Source: Acidobacteriota bacterium (GTDB lineage Bacteria; Acidobacteriota; UBA890; WLXD01). Taken from it: a stretch of DNA of 64,000 nt. Position numbers and translations under genes: made by a program. Location of the stretch: contig CAXWPL010000003.1 in the NCBI GenBank assembly GCA_963666215.2, positions 320,001-384,000 on the forward strand, in the 5' to 3' direction. Below the pieces are notes generated by a model that was given only the letters and a program-made list of their open reading frames with translations, did no database searches and was not told where the DNA came from. Below are positions 52,592 through 60,098 of this stretch, piece after piece. The number at the start of each line of letters is the position of its first letter. Position 1 is the first letter of the stretch.

Positions 52592-53940
52592 TTAGCTCGC
52601 TGGCTGCTGCTGGCTGGCGCAATGCATGCCGCCACCGTAGTAGTTGATCCCCAGCGTATGGAGCTGGACGATCTCGCGGTCGGGGAACAGCTCAGCGAAG
52701 ATCTCGCGTGCCCGCTCGTCCTTCTGCCTTTGCGACTCGGGCATACCCTCCTGCCAGTATTTCGGGATCAGCACGAGCCCGTTGGTGACCAGGTAGTTGA
52801 GGTAGCTGGCGGCAGCCACCTGGTACATCGTATCGCCCGGCTTCAGGCCAGCGGCGTCGAACTCGCTCTTGCCGCGCTCGTAGCGCTCCTCGGTCAGCGT
52901 GTATTCGCGCCGCAACGGATCGACCTCGGGTAACGCGATACGAATGATCTCGAAGAGGTTGCCATCTTGGTCGGTCTGCTGCCGCAGCGCGAGCAGGTTG
53001 TTCTCCAGCACGTCGTAGTTGAGCTCGTTGACCGGGTTGTCGTGGCGTTCCGCCTCCGGCACTTCGGCAAGCAAGATCGTCGACGAACCCACAAAGCGGG
53101 CGTACTCATCGAGATGACCATTGGCTCCACCGCCCGTGTAGTTGGCCGCAATCGGGCCAGGAAGCCAGAGGTCCTCGACAAGCGGCTCGGGCACCCAGAC
53201 GATCTTGCGCTGCCCCATGACTCGCAGATATTCGGTTTCGATCTCCTCGAGCGAGTGATCCGGGTTGCGCTGCAGAGTGGTCCAGCGGGTCACCATCAAG
53301 GTGCCGCGGCCGTTGACCGTCATGCCGCCACCCTCCCGGTCGAGATCACCTCGAGGCCGAGCATGTCGGCGACGTAGCGGTCGGTGTCACCGGTCAAGCG
53401 CCGACGGCGGGCACGCTCCGAATCTTCATCATCGTCGGTCTGGCTCGCCCGGCCGTAGCTCGTCCAGCGGAAGTCGACGACCTTCGTGTCTCCGGCGCTG
53501 TTGCGCACGAACAGCGGGCCAGGGTCGCGCATCCAGAAGTAGGGCAACTCGTGGACGTGGAGCGAGACGCGACTGCCCCAGGCGCCTTCGGCGCGTAGAC
53601 GCTCCTCGGCCTCGACCGCTGCATCCTCGGACTCCACGAAGACCTCCACATCAACATGGTCGCGGAGCACACGCACCATCTCGACGGTCATCGCGTTCAT
53701 CGTTACCTTGCGCTCCGAGCTCCTGCCGCCGAGCCCCTCCCCTACCCAGGCCACCCAAACCGCATCGTGAGGCTCCCACTCCGCTGGAAAGCTATAGTGC
53801 TCGGGATCGACGACAGCCTCGGGCTCGGCGGGCGGGATTCCTTCAGAGGAGCCCGCCGGGGCGGCGCAGCCGACCGAAGCCGTCGCGGTGAGAACCACAA
53901 CCGCCAGGCCAACCGCCATCGATCGCCGACTCGCGCCCAT
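52592..53940 (-). pseudogene. Agmatine deiminase/PPAD-family lipoprotein, frameshifted
   Basis: FPAEWEPH, WMRDPGP, EGGG.TVNG.GT, GHLDE, SYLNY, GGGMHC. The frame changes near 53335. Confidence 0.85.
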
Positions 53941-54168
53941 TGCCGTCTCCATCGCCCGAGCACATCCAGAACCGCCCCAGCGCCTCAGCCCATCGGACAT
54001 CTTGTATCCCCTCGTCAAGTCTCCAGGTCGTGCTTCAACTACATCGGCCGCACACTACACAAGATCCCCAATCACTCCAACGGGGGCCTCCCGCGCGCCG
54101 GGCTCGGCCAATCGATCGTGGCGACTCGCAAGGCCGGCGAGGCCCGCGGACGGCCTCGCGGCCACAGA

Positions 54169-54891
54169 CTAGAAGCGGGGCTCTCGCGTGAAGAGATAGC
54201 CGGCGCCGCGCACGGTGTGAAAGTGTTGCGGCCGATGCGGATCCGTCTCGAAGCGGCGCCGCAGTCTCAGGACGAAGTTGTCGATCGTGCGATCGGTGGG
54301 ATAGAAGCCCGCACCCCACACGCGGTCCAGGATCTCGTTCCGCGACACCACCTCGCCCTCACGGTCGGTCAGGAGTCGCAAGATCGCGGCTTCCTTGCTG
54401 GTGAGAAAGTGCTTGGCGCCGTCGGGACCGCGGCCGACGTAGCGCACCAAATCGACCTCGCTTTCGCCAAACGTCAGCGGCGGTGGCGGATCGGAGTCAG
54501 ACGGTCGGCTGCGCCGCAGAATCGCCGCCACGCGCAAGAGCAGCTCCTCGAGTCGGAAGGGCTTCGGCAGGTAGTCATCGCCACCCGCGGCAAGTCCCCG
54601 GATGCGATCGTCGGGATCGCTCCGGGCGGTCAGAAAAAGAACCGGCACCTCGTTGCCCGCCTGCCGCAATCTCTCGCACACCGAGAAGCCGTCGAGCCCC
54701 GGAAGCATGACGTCGAGGACGATGAGATCGAAGCGCTCGCCGGCACGCGCCAGTGCATCGATACCGTCGTGCTCCACCGCCACCGCATAGCCTTCAGCCT
54801 CGAGGTTGCTGCGGATCTCATCCGCTAGGCCGGGCTGATCCTCGACGACGAGCAGCCGGCTGGCAACGCTCTCGCCTGCGGACCGACTCAC
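54169..54891 (-). CDS. OmpR-family response regulator
   Basis: LLVVED, LIVLDVMLPG, FLTAR, DDYLPKPF, wHTH RTIDNF..TVRGAGY; GTGA overlap with the kinase stop. Confidence 0.93.
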   Translation of the reverse strand: MSRSAGESVASRLLVVEDQPGLADEIRSNLEAEGYAVAVEHDGIDALARAGERFDLIVLDVMLPGLDGFSVCERLRQAGNEVPVLFLTARSDPDDRIRGLAAGGDDYLPKPFRLEELLLRVAAILRRSRPSDSDPPPPLTFGESEVDLVRYVGRGPDGAKHFLTSKEAAILRLLTDREGEVVSRNEILDRVWGAGFYPTDRTIDNFVLRLRRRFETDPHRPQHFHTVRGAGYLFTREPRF

Positions 54892-55979
54892 GACGGTGGT
54901 GCCGCGAGCGGCCAACGAACCTCGAACGTGGCACCGTGTCCGTGACCCGGTGACGTTGCCGTGATGCCACCATCGGACAGAACGACAACTTCCCGAGCGA
55001 TGTGCAAGCCCAGGCCAGCACCGCTGCCGCCGCGGCGCAGCTCGTCCCCGGGTCGGTAGAACTTCTCGAACAGCAGATCGACATCGTCGGGATCGAAGCC
55101 GCAGCCGTTGTCGCGAACGACAACAGAGACGTCGTGCGCGCCGCGTGTCGCGTCAACCGACAAGCGGGGCTGCTCGGTCTCCAGCAGGGCCTCCAGCGCG
55201 TTGTCGAGCAGGTTGCGCATGACAGCTCGCAGCGCTTCGTCGTCGGCCATGACCCAGAGGTCGCCAGGAAGGTCGACGGAGAGATCGACTCCGGCCTCGC
55301 CGCAGTTGTCCTCCAGGTTGCGCATGACCGGTGCCAGAGCCTCCTGGAGGTGGAGCGCGGCCGGACGCAGAACGAAGCGTCCCTCGCCTAGACGGACCGT
55401 GTCGAGCAGGTTGCTGATCATCGACTCGAGCCGCAACAGGTTGCGCACGATCCGCGACGTCTTGACGCCGCGTTCTTCGGGGGCAAGGTCGTGTCGTTGT
55501 AGGCCCTCGGCCGCGAGCAGCGCCGTTGCCAATGGGCTCTTGAGCTCGTGGCTGGCCGCTGCCAAGAAGTTCTCTTGTCGCCGTCGCAGCACGGCATCCT
55601 GTTGGACCGCCCGCGCCACGACACTCACCGCGCCGAGCAGGACGAGCAGAAAGAAGCCCCCCTCCCAGCCGTATTGGTTCAATCGGTGCCAACGCTCATC
55701 TGCCTGTGCGGTGTCGCGCTGTGGATCAACAATCACGCGGCGACCGTCAACTCGAATCGCCGGCAGCACCCTCTCGACCGCCGAGGGTGTCTCTCCGAGC
55801 TCGAGAAGCCGCTCGGCGGCTCTCACCTGTTCCTGGTCCGAGCGGTCTGCGCGCTCCTCCACCAGGGCGATGAACCGCCACTGATCGAGCATCCACCAGG
55901 CTACCTGTGCCGCGCTGATGATCAGCAGCACACCGAGCCCGATGCTCAGAAAGCGAGTCGTACGGCGTTTTGTCGGCAA
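54888..55979 (-). CDS. Two-TM sensor histidine kinase
   Basis: H-box SHELKSPL, N-box NLLDNA, DNGCG, FEKFYR, GAGLGL. Confidence 0.93.
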   Translation of the reverse strand: MPTKRRTTRFLSIGLGVLLIISAAQVAWWMLDQWRFIALVEERADRSDQEQVRAAERLLELGETPSAVERVLPAIRVDGRRVIVDPQRDTAQADERWHRLNQYGWEGGFFLLVLLGAVSVVARAVQQDAVLRRRQENFLAAASHELKSPLATALLAAEGLQRHDLAPEERGVKTSRIVRNLLRLESMISNLLDTVRLGEGRFVLRPAALHLQEALAPVMRNLEDNCGEAGVDLSVDLPGDLWVMADDEALRAVMRNLLDNALEALLETEQPRLSVDATRGAHDVSVVVRDNGCGFDPDDVDLLFEKFYRPGDELRRGGSGAGLGLHIAREVVVLSDGGITATSPGHGHGATFEVRWPLAAPPS

Positions 55980-56071
55980 GGAGGACCTCGAACAGTTGGC
56001 CAGAGCAAGCTCTCAACGATCGCCACGATTCTAGCGGCGTCGCCTGCTCCGGCCTCGCTGCCCGCCGCCTT

Positions 56072-59065
56072 CTAGAAGCGCACCGTGGTACCCAAGCGAA
56101 TATCGCGCCCAATGCCCGGCGTCCCGAAGCGCGCATTCTCGTAGCTGCGATCGGCCAGGTTACTGATCGCCAGGTGCAGCTCCAACGGCTGCCCGGCGAC
56201 CCCAGTGGCCCAGGTTGCCTGGAAATCGTGGAGCACGTAACCCGCCGTCGCCTCGACGCCCGTCGGCACGCGATCACGATCGCCGTAGATGCGGGTGAAC
56301 CAATTGGCGCGCAGGCCGAGCTCCGGCCGGCGCCACTCGGCTCCGAGAACGAGCTTGTCGTTGGGAATCTGCAGCAACGGCTCTCCAGTGGCGTTGTCCT
56401 CGCCACGAGTCCGCGAGAACGATCCCCGCAGAACGATGTCGCGCTGCGGACTCAGGTCAACGGAGGCTTCGAATCCCGTCATCTGGGCGTCGAGGCGATT
56501 GGTCGCCTGCCACAGCTGGATCTGAGTGCCTCCGGTCACAGGAAACTCCGAAGTGAATACCGGCAGCAGCTCGATGAAGTTCTCGACGTCCGCACGCCAC
56601 AGCGAGGCACGCGCCGAAACGCGCCCACGACGGAACCTCAGGCCGCCGTCGAAGTTACGGCTGGTTTCGGCGACAAGATCCTCGTTGGGCAGAAACAGCG
56701 CCAGAAAAAAAACGTCTTGCGTCAAGGGAAAGGCGAAGTGGGTGCCCGTCAGGAAGAGCTCCTGGAAGAAGGGCGCACGGAACCCACCGCCGTAGCTGGC
56801 CGAGGCGAAGAGACCCTCACTGAGCTGGTAACTCGCCCCCAACTTGGGCGAAAGGCGATCGACCTTCTGGGAGCTGAGCTCGACAAGGTCCGGCTTGCTG
56901 TTCCAGCGGTCGTAGCGCAGGCCAGGAACCACCGACAGTCGTCCGTCGAACAGCGACAGCTCGTCTTGCACGAAGGTGCCGAGCTGCGTGCGGCTGCCCG
57001 ACGGGAAGAATGCGTGGGCATCGCCGTTGCGAACGGCGTCCTGGCGCTCCTGCACGAGCTCGAAGCCGTAGGTGACGGCGTGCGAGCCGCCCACGAGCGC
57101 CGTGTTGCGCGCATCGATGCCCCAGGTGCGGTAGCCGATGTCGTCAACGCGACCGTCGGCGATCCGGGACTCGTCGATCTTGGTCTCGTTGACGTAGACG
57201 GTGGCGTTGAGGCTGTTGTCCCACCAGTTCTCCCCTGTGCGGGTGTAGCGCGCGTTGACGCCCGCCGAGCGAGTGGCGCGGTCGATCAACTCGGCAGCGC
57301 CGACATCCATCAACGCGAGGTTCGTTGACGATCTGCCTTTCTGGCGAAAGTAGTTGCCCGAAAGGCGCAGCAGGCCGGAGCTACCGAGCGGCGTGTGCAG
57401 GCGGGCGTTGAAGTCGTTGATGTCCTCCTCGGCCTGTTCCAGATTGGACTGGACGCCGGCAATCTGAATCGAGCCGTCGTTGCGCCTGCCGGTGTAGGAG
57501 GCCATCCAGCTGAGGCCCGAGTCGGACCTACCGTAGAGACGAGGAGCGACGGTCCACTCGCCGTAGGCCGACGAGTAGGTCGAGCGCACCTGAGCGCCCA
57601 GGGTCTGGCGCGGATCGAGCAGGTCGCCCGGCGCGCGGGTGGTGATCGAGATGACGCCACCGATCGCCCCCGAGCCATACAGCGCTGAGGCCGGACCCTT
57701 GACGATCTCCACCTTCTCGATGTCATCGGTGTCGAAGAAATACGTGCCCCGGTGACCCGAGTTGAACTGCGCCACACGAGCTCCGTCGCGGAGCGTGAGG
57801 ATTCGCTGGTCGTCGAAGCCACGGATGTTGGGCGTTTGCCCGAGGCGTCGAGGCGACTCGCTCATCTCGACACCCGGCTCATAGCGCAGCACGTCATCGA
57901 GCCCACGCGCCTGCGTGCGGTCGAGATCATCGCGATCAATCACCGTCACCTCGCCAGGCACCCCGAGCGTGTCGCGCTCCGTGTGCGTTGCCGCCACCGT
58001 GATGCGCTTGGAGTAGGGCGCCAGCTGCAGCTCCACGTCGAGGTTCAACGAAGATCCAGAGGAGATCTCCACGGCCTGAGCCCAACGCCGGAAGCTGTCG
58101 ACATCGACCACCACGAGGTACGTGCCTGGACCGACCTGTTCGAAGCGAGCCAGGCCCTCCTGGTTGGTCGTACGTGAGATCACCTCGTCTCCCAATCTCA
58201 GCGAGACGGGTATCGATGGCGCCAACCGACCGTTGGGTGAGTAGACGGTCACCTCGACGATGGCTGACTGTTGCGCCTGCGCGACGGGAGCCACCGACGC
58301 CACCAGCATCACAGCGCCCACGACGGTCGCGGCTGTTCTGACCGCGGGTCGGGCCGGCGACGGCGACCGTCGTCGAACGTTGAGCCAGTAACCGGTCCAG
58401 ATCAGGAGGATTCCGATGATTTCCATGACGTACAAGACCTCCGTGCGCCCCATGCGACTGGCCGCACCGCCGATGCCCGGCAGAATTGCGCCGGATGCGA
58501 TGAACACGTTGCCGACGAACCGATCGCGGGCAACAACAGCACCGCTGCCGTCCCCCCGGGACGCGCGGTAGAAACGCCAAGCGGAGTAGATGGCTCCGCC
58601 GATCAGAAAGATCACGGCGTAGGTGTTGATGAAGGGGCTGAACGCCCGTACCCATTGCCAGGCGAACGCGCGTCCACTCGGCAGGTGGGGGTCCACCACC
58701 GCCATGTTGATGGGGCTGGCGATCACGCACGCGGCGGCGACTGTGACCACCGACACCAGAGCGATCGTCAGGCGCCGCGCTACCCGCGGTCGAAGCAGCA
58801 GCCAGACCGTTCCCTGCGCCAGCGGCGCACCCCCGAGGAGAGCCCCGACCACGTACCAGAACTTGAACATCACCGGGCTCCAGCCGAAGAGCGTGAACCA
58901 GCTCTCCGCAAAGGTCCCGAGCCCGTAGACGAGAATGCCAGCGCTCCACCAGAGCAGGTGGTTACCGCCACCCCGGTACAGGTAGCGGCGATACACCACG
59001 ACGGCAAACACGAACGAGATCACGGTCGTGGCGATCGGTAGGTAGTGAACAGCGGTGGGTTGCAT
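56072..59065 (-). CDS. Fusion of a 7-TM membrane domain, an internal signal peptide and a heme-type TonB-dependent receptor
   Basis: Residues 1-230 contain seven hydrophobic helices; residues about 245-264 are signal-like and end AQA|QQ. Then a carboxypeptidase-regulatory-like domain, plug (NIRGF, SGH, EIVKGPASALYGSGAIGG), FRAP..H..NEDL and a C-terminal F. Confidence 0.8.
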   Translation of the reverse strand: MQPTAVHYLPIATTVISFVFAVVVYRRYLYRGGGNHLLWWSAGILVYGLGTFAESWFTLFGWSPVMFKFWYVVGALLGGAPLAQGTVWLLLRPRVARRLTIALVSVVTVAAACVIASPINMAVVDPHLPSGRAFAWQWVRAFSPFINTYAVIFLIGGAIYSAWRFYRASRGDGSGAVVARDRFVGNVFIASGAILPGIGGAASRMGRTEVLYVMEIIGILLIWTGYWLNVRRRSPSPARPAVRTAATVVGAVMLVASVAPVAQAQQSAIVEVTVYSPNGRLAPSIPVSLRLGDEVISRTTNQEGLARFEQVGPGTYLVVVDVDSFRRWAQAVEISSGSSLNLDVELQLAPYSKRITVAATHTERDTLGVPGEVTVIDRDDLDRTQARGLDDVLRYEPGVEMSESPRRLGQTPNIRGFDDQRILTLRDGARVAQFNSGHRGTYFFDTDDIEKVEIVKGPASALYGSGAIGGVISITTRAPGDLLDPRQTLGAQVRSTYSSAYGEWTVAPRLYGRSDSGLSWMASYTGRRNDGSIQIAGVQSNLEQAEEDINDFNARLHTPLGSSGLLRLSGNYFRQKGRSSTNLALMDVGAAELIDRATRSAGVNARYTRTGENWWDNSLNATVYVNETKIDESRIADGRVDDIGYRTWGIDARNTALVGGSHAVTYGFELVQERQDAVRNGDAHAFFPSGSRTQLGTFVQDELSLFDGRLSVVPGLRYDRWNSKPDLVELSSQKVDRLSPKLGASYQLSEGLFASASYGGGFRAPFFQELFLTGTHFAFPLTQDVFFLALFLPNEDLVAETSRNFDGGLRFRRGRVSARASLWRADVENFIELLPVFTSEFPVTGGTQIQLWQATNRLDAQMTGFEASVDLSPQRDIVLRGSFSRTRGEDNATGEPLLQIPNDKLVLGAEWRRPELGLRANWFTRIYGDRDRVPTGVEATAGYVLHDFQATWATGVAGQPLELHLAISNLADRSYENARFGTPGIGRDIRLGTTVRF

Positions 59066-59153
59066 CGAGAGCTCCCTAGAACGGCGTCGTACGACGACTT
59101 CGGTTCTTTACGAGCTCTGATTGAACCAACGCGGCGGGGCCGCTATGTCATCC

Positions 59154-59624
59154 CTACGTCACGAGATCGGAATCTCGATCAACGCCGTCTTTCGCCGCCT
59201 CGCTGGCGTCGGTAGCGATCGTCAGCTGCGCCTCGGTGGGAGCATCGAACTCCAGCCTGATCGAGTCGCGCTGCAGCAGGAAACGGGTCCACAGCCCTAG
59301 GATCGTGCCGAAGGGAACAAACAGGCACAGGAGAACCACGGCGATACGGCAGAACCGATAACGCTGGCGACGCTGGATGAAGAAGCTGGCGCGCAGAATC
59401 GTCACCGACCACCAGATCACGAGTATCGCGAAAATCGTCGTCAGCGAAGTCGCGACCAGATCGATGAGCGCCACCAGCAGGCTCTCGGAGCCGAGAGTGC
59501 TCAGCGCGCCCAGCATCGGGCCGCACATCAGCAGGCCCATGAAGATGAAGAAGGCCCCGATCACCCGCATGACAAAGACCATGTTGCGCAGGTGACCGTG
59601 CAGACTGCTCGGTCGCAGGTTCAT
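59154..59624 (-). CDS. Small membrane protein
   Basis: Three to four hydrophobic segments, CLFVPFGTILGLW motif, AAGGAG RBS. Confidence 0.6.
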   Translation of the reverse strand: MNLRPSSLHGHLRNMVFVMRVIGAFFIFMGLLMCGPMLGALSTLGSESLLVALIDLVATSLTTIFAILVIWWSVTILRASFFIQRRQRYRFCRIAVVLLCLFVPFGTILGLWTRFLLQRDSIRLEFDAPTEAQLTIATDASEAAKDGVDRDSDLVT

Positions 59625-59698
59625 ATGAAGAGCTCCTTGGCGGTCGAGGAGACTAGACTGGCGCTTCCCGAAACCATCGAGCAACTGGCGATCTGTCC

Positions 59699-60098
59699 GT
59701 GCAACGAAACACCCTTAACCGGAAGCTAGCCGCTGCGGCAACCGTCGGCAACGCTCTCGCCCTCCTCGCCACGGCTTGTATACCCAGCGCCGACCCGGGC
59801 TCCCCGGCCGACCATTGGCCCGGATTCCTCGGGCCCACGGGGATCGCGGTAGGCCATCATCCGGACCTGCCGGAATCCTGGTCGGCGTCGCAGAACATCG
59901 AGTGGAGCGCGGAGATCCCGGGCAGGGGCTGGTCCTCGCCGGTCGTCTGGGGCGATCGAGTCTTCCTGACCGCCGAGACCAGCGAGCAGACGCTGAAGGA
60001 GCCGGGGTTCGGTGTGGACTTCGGCAACGAGTACATCGCCGAGCTCCTCGCCGAGGGGCGCAGCGAGGCCGAAGCCTCCGATATGGCCGACGCCCGCC
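59699..60098 (+). pseudogene. PQQ/BamB-like beta-propeller lipoprotein, N-terminal fragment
   Basis: Lipobox ATAC; HWPGFLGP, LPESWS..NIEW..EIPGRGWSSPVVWGDRVFLT; homology stops near 60095. Confidence 0.75.

Follow-up and report, generated by a model that had tools for sequence, protein, structure and literature searches.

We describe a gene that probably encodes a signal-peptidase-processed polyprotein: a seven-helix inner-membrane domain (7TM, for seven transmembrane helices) followed, through an internal signal peptide, by a complete TonB-dependent receptor of the haem type, the two parts being functional partners. The gene lies in a 64,000-nucleotide (nt) stretch of DNA, here called the window, which spans positions 320,001 to 384,000 (forward strand) of contig CAXWPL010000003.1 in the assembly GCA_963666215.2 of an Acidobacteriota bacterium. 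As a rule, an outer-membrane beta-barrel has a precursor of its own, which carries an N-terminal signal peptide. A preliminary description of the window, made from its letters only, had proposed this reading, and our analysis supports it, cleavage and function being the parts that we infer. The fusion gene occupies 56072..59065 on the minus strand as a single open reading frame (ORF) of 997 codons, as first described, with an ATG start preceded at 6 nt by GGGAG and no stop inside the frame. From its 5' end it comprises:

58372..59065, minus strand: seven-helix inner-membrane domain of an unnamed family, predicted from AlphaFold2, loop charges and the fusions of relatives (residues 1-231)
58336..58371, minus strand: basic linker RSPSPARPAVR, predicted to be cytoplasmic and to serve as n-region, from the sequence (residues 232-243)
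58274..58335, minus strand: h-region and c-region TAATVVGAVMLVASVAPVAQA with a predicted signal peptidase I site, A262-Q-A264 before Q265 (residues 244-264)
58025..58258, minus strand: CarboxypepD_reg beta-sandwich, N-terminal extension of the receptor, Pfam PF13620 with 34.0 bits against a cut-off of 32.3 (residues 270-347)
57986..58006, minus strand: TonB-box-like RITVAAT, from its position just before the plug (residues 354-360)
57653..57964, minus strand: plug domain, Pfam PF07715, including SGH at 436-438 (residues 368-471)
56075..57370, minus strand: TonB-dependent barrel of the 22-strand type, from Pfam PF00593, TIGR01785 and motifs (residues 566-997)

The receptor part is complete. Plug and barrel both exceed their Pfam cut-offs, with 108.9 bits against 23.9 for the former (E 2.3e-31, profile positions 4-107 of 107) and 160.6 bits against 27 for the latter (TonB_dep_Rec, residues 566-970, E 1.5e-46). 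The NCBIfam profile of TonB-dependent haem/haemoglobin receptors, TIGR01785, is matched end to end (residues 354-997, profile positions 3-677 of 677) with 383.2 bits against a cut-off of 316.85, while TIGR01786 stays under its own (310.5 against 323.75). The full receptor announced in the preliminary description is thus present, though that description had overlooked CarboxypepD_reg, the domain that separates the AxA site from the plug; its strands, at residues 268-345, are modelled by AlphaFold2 (residues 1-352) with a predicted local distance difference test score (pLDDT) above 95, and the domain is found in the seven closest fusions (71-100% identical). The motifs named beforehand were all located: SGH at 436-438, FRAP at 762-765, His776, NEDL at 794-797 and the terminal Phe of a C-terminus reading ...TVRF. 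SGH, FRAP..His..NxxL and the terminal Phe are hallmarks of haem receptors, a group defined by a FRAP box, a conserved His and an NPNL box in an extracellular loop, the second box being NEDL here. The label "haem receptor" comes from the family score and from these motifs, and haem is a putative substrate; the HmuY-like neighbours and the one HmuY fusion of the 7TM family, described below, give the haem link indirect support. RITVAAT is presumably the TonB box, and a motif T[VI]T[AG][TKR] stands at the equivalent position in 53 of 64 receptor fusions.

The first 231 residues form a domain of their own. AlphaFold2, run on residues 1-240 with an alignment of 31 stand-alone homologues, models seven membrane helices (5-30, 35-60, 64-90, 93-116, 137-169, 175-204 and 208-231) at a mean pLDDT of 93.3, which agrees with the seven hydrophobic helices read earlier from residues 1-230; helix 3 is kinked at 77-79, at the conserved motif LGGAPLAQGT. 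Residues 1-240 gave no Pfam match up to E=10, and the 31 members of the family only scattered sub-threshold ones. A sequence profile search of PDB with the 7TM part returned a single chance match to a histone (E 0.068), and ESM Atlas, which lacks the window's sequence and was queried with the homologue P0006, returned clusters of "hypothetical protein" only. Arginine clusters follow helices 1, 3, 5 and 7 (RRYLYR 26-31, RPRVARR 91-97, RFYRASR 164-170 and RRR 230-232). Within four residues on either side of the model loops we count 11 Lys+Arg inside and 4 outside, so that the positive-inside rule predicts, as had been proposed, an N-terminus outside and a C-terminus in the cytoplasm. Two kinds of fusion in relatives fit this topology: the permease FecCD is joined directly after helix 7, leading into the first helix of the permease (P0005, P0168), as a cytoplasmic C-terminus allows, and the periplasmic part PilX_N stands ahead of helix 1 (P0194), in line with an N-terminus outside. 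The predicted topology, by charge count and by these fusions, thus places the C-terminus inside, where an internal export signal needs it.

The junction reads RRRSPSPARPAVR, a basic linker, then the uncharged stretch TAATVVGAVMLVASVAPVA, then QA/QQ, the stroke marking the proposed cut. The linker carries five Lys+Arg and no Asp or Glu. All elements of the Sec-type pattern are there: an n-region RRRSPSPARPAVR, an h-region TAATVVGAVMLVASVA and a c-region PVAQA/QQ with small residues at -3 and -1, so that the n/h/c segment with an AxA site near residue 264, described beforehand, is found as A262-Q-A264 ahead of Q265. This segment is not N-terminal: seven helices precede it, and its start lies near residue 232; we hence call it an internal signal peptide only. 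Signal peptidase I (TIGR02227) is encoded twice in the genome.

The character of this junction is maintained in relatives. In 64 full-length receptor fusions, 46-100% identical, we compared a segment of 81 residues that spans the end of helix 7. The linker has a median of three Lys+Arg and one Asp+Glu, and the uncharged stretch a median length of 19; an Ala ends the stretch in 50 of the 64, and in 45 this Ala is followed by Gln, Asp or Glu. Among 322 control stretches, which are the remaining hydrophobic segments of these 7TM domains, the corresponding counts are 16 and 12, and among 43 N-terminal signals of stand-alone neighbour receptors 24 and 19. Most of the remaining fusions have x-R-A just after the stretch. 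The junction sequence diverges from fusion to fusion while its signal-peptide character is kept. Two other fusions point in the same direction. In the HmuY fusion (P0220) the internal hydrophobic stretch is followed by LSAC, which matches the consensus of a lipoprotein lipobox, and then by a segment rich in Ser, Thr and Pro; a lipobox would serve no purpose unless the chain is cut at that point, which argues for cleavage. In the fusion to a GDPD phosphodiesterase (P0185), a signal-like stretch precedes the periplasmic enzyme domain.

We propose that the seven-helix domain would first enter the inner membrane, its C-terminus facing the cytoplasm. The basic linker and the hydrophobic stretch would then act as an internal Sec-type signal, passing all that follows them into the periplasm, and signal peptidase I would cut after A262-Q-A264. 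Two products would result: an inner-membrane protein of about 264 residues, made of the seven helices and of the retained signal as an eighth helix, and a mature receptor of 733 residues (CarboxypepD_reg, TonB box, plug and barrel) bound for the outer membrane. The comparative evidence above favours cleavage; a cut at AQA/QQ would deliver both products at a 1:1 stoichiometry.

The frame across this junction is authentic. The genome is a five-contig assembly, 91.7% complete, and we checked the junction since a nearby gene is split: PAD_porph (peptidyl-arginine/agmatine deiminase of the Porphyromonas type), at 52592-54018 on the minus strand of the window, is read as two ORFs, 53320-54018 (profile positions 2-113) and 52592-53323 (136-321), which overlap by 4 nt in different frames; either a frameshift has made it a pseudogene, or the sequence is locally wrong. 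All sampled words of a 701-base stretch over the junction occur in ten public runs from four studies, and part of them in other runs; none of the runs listed is of RNA. Positions 57900-59150 lie in one piece on contigs of four runs from four studies, one of which runs may itself have supplied the window. These contigs show not one differing base or gap; the stop or frameshift that might have been hidden at the junction is thus absent. Among 60 relatives, five other genomes hold the 7TM part. One of them (G003), from another genus of the same family, has a fusion ORF of 1004 aa which is 63% identical over 1000 columns, junction included, and is followed, like that of the window, by ORFs of the size of a kinase and a regulator. 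Six further metagenomic fusion proteins are 71-77% identical in the 7TM part. In two other genomes, G010 and G006, the 7TM part is encoded on its own, by a gene of 239-254 codons, 77-79% identical, which ends just past helix 7 and is followed by an unrelated gene with a permease-prefix-like start; no receptor adjoins. The closest receptor of G010 is 46% identical and lies on a different contig, and in G006 none is nearer than 33% over the N-terminal part. Close relatives with the two parts as adjacent separate genes, the arrangement that would have pointed to a recent loss of a stop codon, were therefore not found, and the window's fusion did not arise from two such genes. The window's genome also holds a second, weak relative of the 7TM part (L002, G000:C4:610094-613318, match at C4:611594-611818), 44% identical over residues 145-227 within an open frame of 199 codons.

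The 7TM family is large. Searched exhaustively with HMMER, 1.84 billion cluster representatives yielded 977 sequences related to the 7TM part (E<=1e-3), the majority of them 220-260 aa long; a word-indexed search among proteins of similar length scored 8,000 candidates and gave 6,267 clusters (90% identity) at E<=1e-10. The homologues of similar length are called "hypothetical protein" wherever they are named and have no Pfam domain. The preliminary description took the family for a stand-alone uncharacterised protein of about 220 aa, which is right as to its nature, while its homologues have mostly 235-250 aa. Longer relatives (421-2000 aa) yielded 83 matches, about 66 of which combine 7TM, plug and barrel in about 980-1150 aa. 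These protein clusters come from NCBI, JGI, ENA and Logan, on contigs of up to 3.3 Mb, and those that are named are TonB-dependent receptors of Thermoanaerobaculia. The search for the same fusion in other genomes, suggested in the preliminary description, thus succeeded well beyond G003.

Other partners are also found. Besides the two FecCD fusions, the HmuY fusion (from Gemmatimonadota), the GDPD fusion and the PilX_N fusion, in which the 7TM is C-terminal, the domain is joined to an RND/MMPL transporter (P0222). Twelve distant relatives of about 1053-1075 aa (P0223-P0234, E 1e-12 to 3e-7, 27-32% identity) comprise eleven with a Pfam COX1 domain and one, P0226, with no domain on record; in the two sequences that we read, P0223 and P0230, the 7TM-like part is C-terminal, after a region of about 250 residues. 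These COX1-like proteins (haem-copper oxidase subunit I-like) appear to be another link between the 7TM fold and haem proteins. A protein of 315 aa on a Logan contig of 2020 bases (P0004, 69-71% identical) consists of the 7TM, the internal signal (...APAVGAQE...) and the last 45 or so residues of the barrel; either it derives from the fusion by an internal deletion or it was misassembled. Two 7TM homologues of the phylum, at G303:C35:17189-17878 and G094:C59:5301-5978, contain one in-frame TAG, for which a pseudogene, a sequencing error or recoding may account.

In a FastTree phylogeny of 152 7TM domains the receptor fusions fall at three separate places. The window's clade of eight is nested among stand-alone genes of the Fidelibacterota type and includes the stand-alone genes of G010 and G006; a second place holds P0189 and P0221, beside the GDPD fusion; the third and largest, with 54 fusions and two fragments, is sister to the HmuY fusion. 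A single clade of the 22 fusions sampled in a 56-row IQ-TREE analysis was rejected by the approximately unbiased (AU) test (p 6.8e-6, log-likelihood difference 135), the group being defined by architecture, but only after the first tree had been inspected. The tree is unrooted, so that gains and losses of the fusion are not separable on it; the three placements, together with the differing architectures of the receptors, favour repeated fusion. Two short-branch pairs were seen on the tree, L018 (JACZSS010000417.1, Heimdallarchaeota) with L016 and L011 (JADFQJ010000057.1, Bacteroidetes) with L010, the partners being Marinimicrobia/Fidelibacterota; L018 and L011 are probably mis-binned contigs.

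On its 3' side the fusion gene is followed by two genes of a two-component system:

54888..55979, minus strand: histidine kinase with two membrane segments, a periplasmic loop of about 75 aa, and HisKA and HATPase_c (Pfam)
54169..54915, minus strand: response regulator of the OmpR type, Pfam Response_reg and Trans_reg_C

On its 5' side, at 88 nt, lies an ORF of 176 aa (59154-59684, minus strand), hydrophobic, with several membrane-like segments and no Pfam match. A scan of 55800-59800 for promoters and terminators found none.

Stand-alone 7TM genes have recurrent neighbours. A scan of one genome per species gave 559 relatives, and neighbourhoods were counted for the best 80 of these 559 loci, all of them stand-alone 7TM genes, from Fidelibacterota (Marinimicrobia), Gemmatimonadota, Acidobacteriota (Vicinamibacterales and Thermoanaerobaculaceae included), Rhodothermota, Calditrichota, KSB1 and Latescibacterota. 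For 66 loci 2.5 kb or more of upstream DNA was available (the other 14 were skipped). In 46 of these 66 a receptor homologous to the window's (BLASTP E<1e-8) ends on the same strand less than 3 kb upstream, and in 36 the gap is at most 300 nt; as the genomes are related, this count is descriptive and not a statistical test. In eight loci a further neighbour family stands mostly between receptor and 7TM, and the one representative scanned is HmuY-like (PF14064, E 1.9e-8). Histidine kinase and response regulator genes recur beside the stand-alone 7TM/receptor pairs; upstream of the 7TM they are of the HisKA/HAMP kind or, in 19 loci, of the GAF-HisKA_3 kind. The Fidelibacterota chromosome CP070656.1 has two stand-alone 7TM copies about 1 Mb apart (L019 and L020), each 282 nt 3' of a 446-aa histidine kinase with no receptor between. 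The best NCBIfam match is TIGR01785 in nine of the ten partner receptors tested, the two of the window's clade passing its cut-off (P0001 with 383 bits, P0156 with 381.5).

This large unnamed family thus appears, from gene order and fusions, to be a conserved genomic partner of a subfamily of haem/haemoglobin-like receptors. Since its fusions and neighbours are the receptor, HmuY and FecCD, we place it in the acquisition of haem or related tetrapyrroles. Most likely the 7TM protein handles the receptor's import at the inner membrane: it could move haem or a related tetrapyrrole inward, or sense either for the adjacent two-component system. A permease fits those loci where receptor and 7TM gene stand by themselves, and a sensor fits the two-component neighbours and the faint resemblance to HisKA_7TM and to G-protein-coupled receptors (GPCR). 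More broadly, these genes might form a recurrent class of polyproteins, a Sec/SRP-inserted 7TM plus TonB barrel or, once, HmuY, split at an internal signal, in which the 7TM would be an unrecognised component of HmuR/HmuY-type systems, either a non-ABC (ATP-binding cassette) haem permease or a sensor, in Acidobacteriota, Gemmatimonadota, Fidelibacterota, Rhodothermota and Calditrichota; we regard this generalisation as evenly balanced between true and false.

Several observations weigh against the cleaved polyprotein or against a haem function of its first product. At the junction, 14 of the 64 fusions have no Ala at the end of the stretch. Our own (-3,-1) rule for cleavage sites was dropped because 226 of the 322 control stretches pass it, so that "Ala then Gln, Asp or Glu" is the sole measure that separates the junctions from the controls. 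Of 301 genomes sampled from the phylum, 19 have the family at E<=1e-10, and it is fused (frame of at least 1000 codons) in G000, the window's genome, and G003 only. The stand-alone order is usually receptor then 7TM, the reverse of that in the fusion, which did not therefore arise from the stand-alone arrangement by simple loss of a stop codon. As for haem, eight other partner receptors score only 161-238 bits with TIGR01785, under 316.85; no conserved His or Cys suggestive of a haem ligand stands out in the 7TM family; Foldseek with the 7TM fold returned only GPCR-like bundles (TM-score 0.5-0.6), at E of at least 7e-3 and not significant. A narrow haem role is also countered by the FecCD permease found elsewhere in the window's genome and by G010 and G006, which keep the 7TM gene with no receptor nearby. 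Look-alike clusters in the Atlas are commonest in Actinomycetota and Chloroflexota; given these and the arrangement of G010 and G006, an outer-membrane receptor cannot be a strict requirement for whatever the 7TM does.

The alternative that survives best concerns the 7TM role only and is compatible with the polyprotein mechanism. The 7TM might be a receptor-like sensor of periplasmic haem, or of receptor occupancy, which would inform the adjacent kinase, the fusion merely co-expressing sensor and receptor. We consider this possible, with chances well short of even. The kinase and regulator genes flank the fusion, with ORFs of the same size in G003, and such genes recur by the stand-alone 7TM, directly upstream in five Fidelibacterota loci; the periplasmic loop of the window's kinase is only about 75 residues long. 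The likeness to Pfam HisKA_7TM (PF16927) goes in the same direction: this domain also has seven helices with the N-terminus out, it was a lead in the Atlas (0.82), and it gives sub-threshold matches in four of the 31 members (best E 0.017) and in P0050 (E 3.5e-4), to which the GPCR-type likeness of the fold may be added. However, these matches are under the gathering score (at best 20.9 bits against 28.6), the window's own domain has none and no kinase is attached to it, and the Foldseek likeness is not significant. Besides, the fusions to FecCD and to RND/MMPL fit transport at least equally well, and many loci with receptor and 7TM have no kinase within 5 kb.

It is unlikely that the chain stays uncleaved, the stretch being an eighth membrane helix and the receptor a tethered domain which would either span the envelope or never reach the outer membrane. 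It is true that the uncharged stretch, at a median of 19 residues, could cross a membrane, and that the acidic low-complexity spacer of many fusions could act as a tether. But a plain anchor has no need of the Ala followed by Gln, Asp or Glu that sets the junctions apart from the control stretches, nor of the lipobox kept in the HmuY fusion. The distances are also short. From A264 to the TonB box there are about 90 residues, 78 of them in the folded sandwich and hence mostly compact, and the spacer of the large clade has a median of 36 residues. Over the 53 fusions with the TonB-box-like motif, this motif likewise comes at a median of 36 residues after the stretch (range 18-97), the acidic spacer usually lying between. 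The periplasm of E. coli is about 20 nm wide; such lengths would be too short for a periplasm of this kind, which supports cleavage. Residues 242-246 and 248-261 are modelled by AlphaFold2 (residues 1-352, alignment of 40 rows, confident for the bundle itself) at pLDDT <50, with no helix and unpacked on the bundle, a weak hint that agrees better with a signal peptide than with an eighth, integral helix. Finally a complete barrel with plug and C-terminal Phe fits a receptor normally assembled in the outer membrane and, as such, speaks for the processed polyprotein.

Slightly less probable again is that the receptor comes mainly from an internal translation start, the read-through fusion being minor or regulatory and the two parts not necessarily made 1:1. 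A Met lies at most 12 residues before the stretch in 20 of the 64 fusions, for example in P0008 (...KMIKQLTV...) and P0009 (...NMKTTT...). This Met is likely the relic start codon of a formerly separate receptor gene, and such a relic might still be used. But no such Met is found in 44 of the 64, nor in the window's gene and its six closest relatives, nor more generally in the window's clade. The only in-frame ATG or GTG near the window's junction are inside the h-region, so that a product started there would lose the n-region and part of the h-region. With no usable internal start, the export of the window's receptor would depend on the upstream part, as the polyprotein implies.

Lastly a recent accidental fusion, a pseudogene or an assembly error, against which the preliminary description had cautioned, is very improbable: frame disruptions do occur nearby (PAD_porph), P0004 resembles a deletion derivative and in G010 and G006, which are close relatives, the 7TM gene stands alone, but the junction is identical in the contig sets of four studies, the frame is kept at 63% full-length identity in another genus and in about 66 clusters, the signal-peptide character outlives the divergence of the junction sequence, and no receptor gene follows the 7TM gene in G010 and G006.

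Polyproteins cut by signal peptidase are known in principle. The closest precedent known to us is FbcH of Bradyrhizobium japonicum, a cytochrome b-c1 precursor reportedly split at an internal signal peptide (work of Thony-Meyer and colleagues, around 1989-1991). There too a single bacterial ORF is said to join a polytopic inner-membrane part, an internal Sec-type signal and an exported part, giving two coupled products. By contrast both products of FbcH belong to one inner-membrane complex, whereas here the second is an outer-membrane barrel and the first belongs to an uncharacterised family; the fusion described here also probably arose several times, and its cleavage is a prediction. Compared with receptors of the HemR/HmuR/ShuA type, the receptor part matches TIGR01785 over its full length and shares plug, barrel, FRAP, His, N-x-x-L and terminal Phe; it differs in that a prefix of 264 residues, membrane protein plus signal, replaces the N-terminal signal peptide, in the presence of CarboxypepD_reg, and in NEDL in place of NPNL. 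The HmuY-HmuR loci of Porphyromonas and other Bacteroidota resemble the eight loci with HmuY-like genes between receptor and 7TM, and P0220, in which 7TM and HmuY are fused; the phyla here are, however, Fidelibacterota, Gemmatimonadota, Acidobacteriota, Rhodothermota and Calditrichota. No 7TM partner of this family is known to us for hmu loci, and the literature search found none. This full-text search likewise found no description of a fusion between such a 7TM and a receptor, nor of this 7TM family, though supplementary tables of domain architectures could list one.

Two cases from the literature can be compared with the two halves of our proposal. HemU of Stenotrophomonas maltophilia is a non-ABC haemin permease of 155 aa, genetically required for the use of haemin and unlike the HemU/PhuU ABC permeases (PMC11002078). 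Like the 7TM it is a small inner-membrane protein, though of 155 instead of about 240 aa and not fused to a receptor; the likeness is one of description only. It may nevertheless serve as a precedent for small inner-membrane haem importers that went unrecognised. The polyproteins of flaviviruses and hepaciviruses are cut by the host signal peptidase at internal signals (PMC7601889, PMC5402940): in a multi-pass precursor, each internal hydrophobic signal directs the following part across the membrane and signal peptidase cuts the products apart, as we propose here. They are viral and processed in the eukaryotic endoplasmic reticulum, while ours is a cellular bacterial gene whose second product would cross the periplasm into the outer membrane. 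The principle is hence already known; as far as we checked, what is new is the pairing of an inner-membrane protein with a barrel, its recurrence, and the role that it implies for an unnamed family.

If the proposal is true, the fusion would be a rare natural example of a bacterial polyprotein processed by signal peptidase and, as far as our literature search goes, the first known to pair an inner-membrane with an outer-membrane protein. It would offer a simple experimental system for the recognition of internal signals, and for asking whether the co-translational targeting of an upstream domain helps the export of a barrel. Even if no cleavage takes place, the fusions tie the unnamed 7TM family to haem-type receptors, HmuY and FecCD. 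A "hypothetical protein" that is frequent in abundant uncultured phyla of sea and soil, where the acquisition of haem and iron matters ecologically, thereby gains a function that can be tested.

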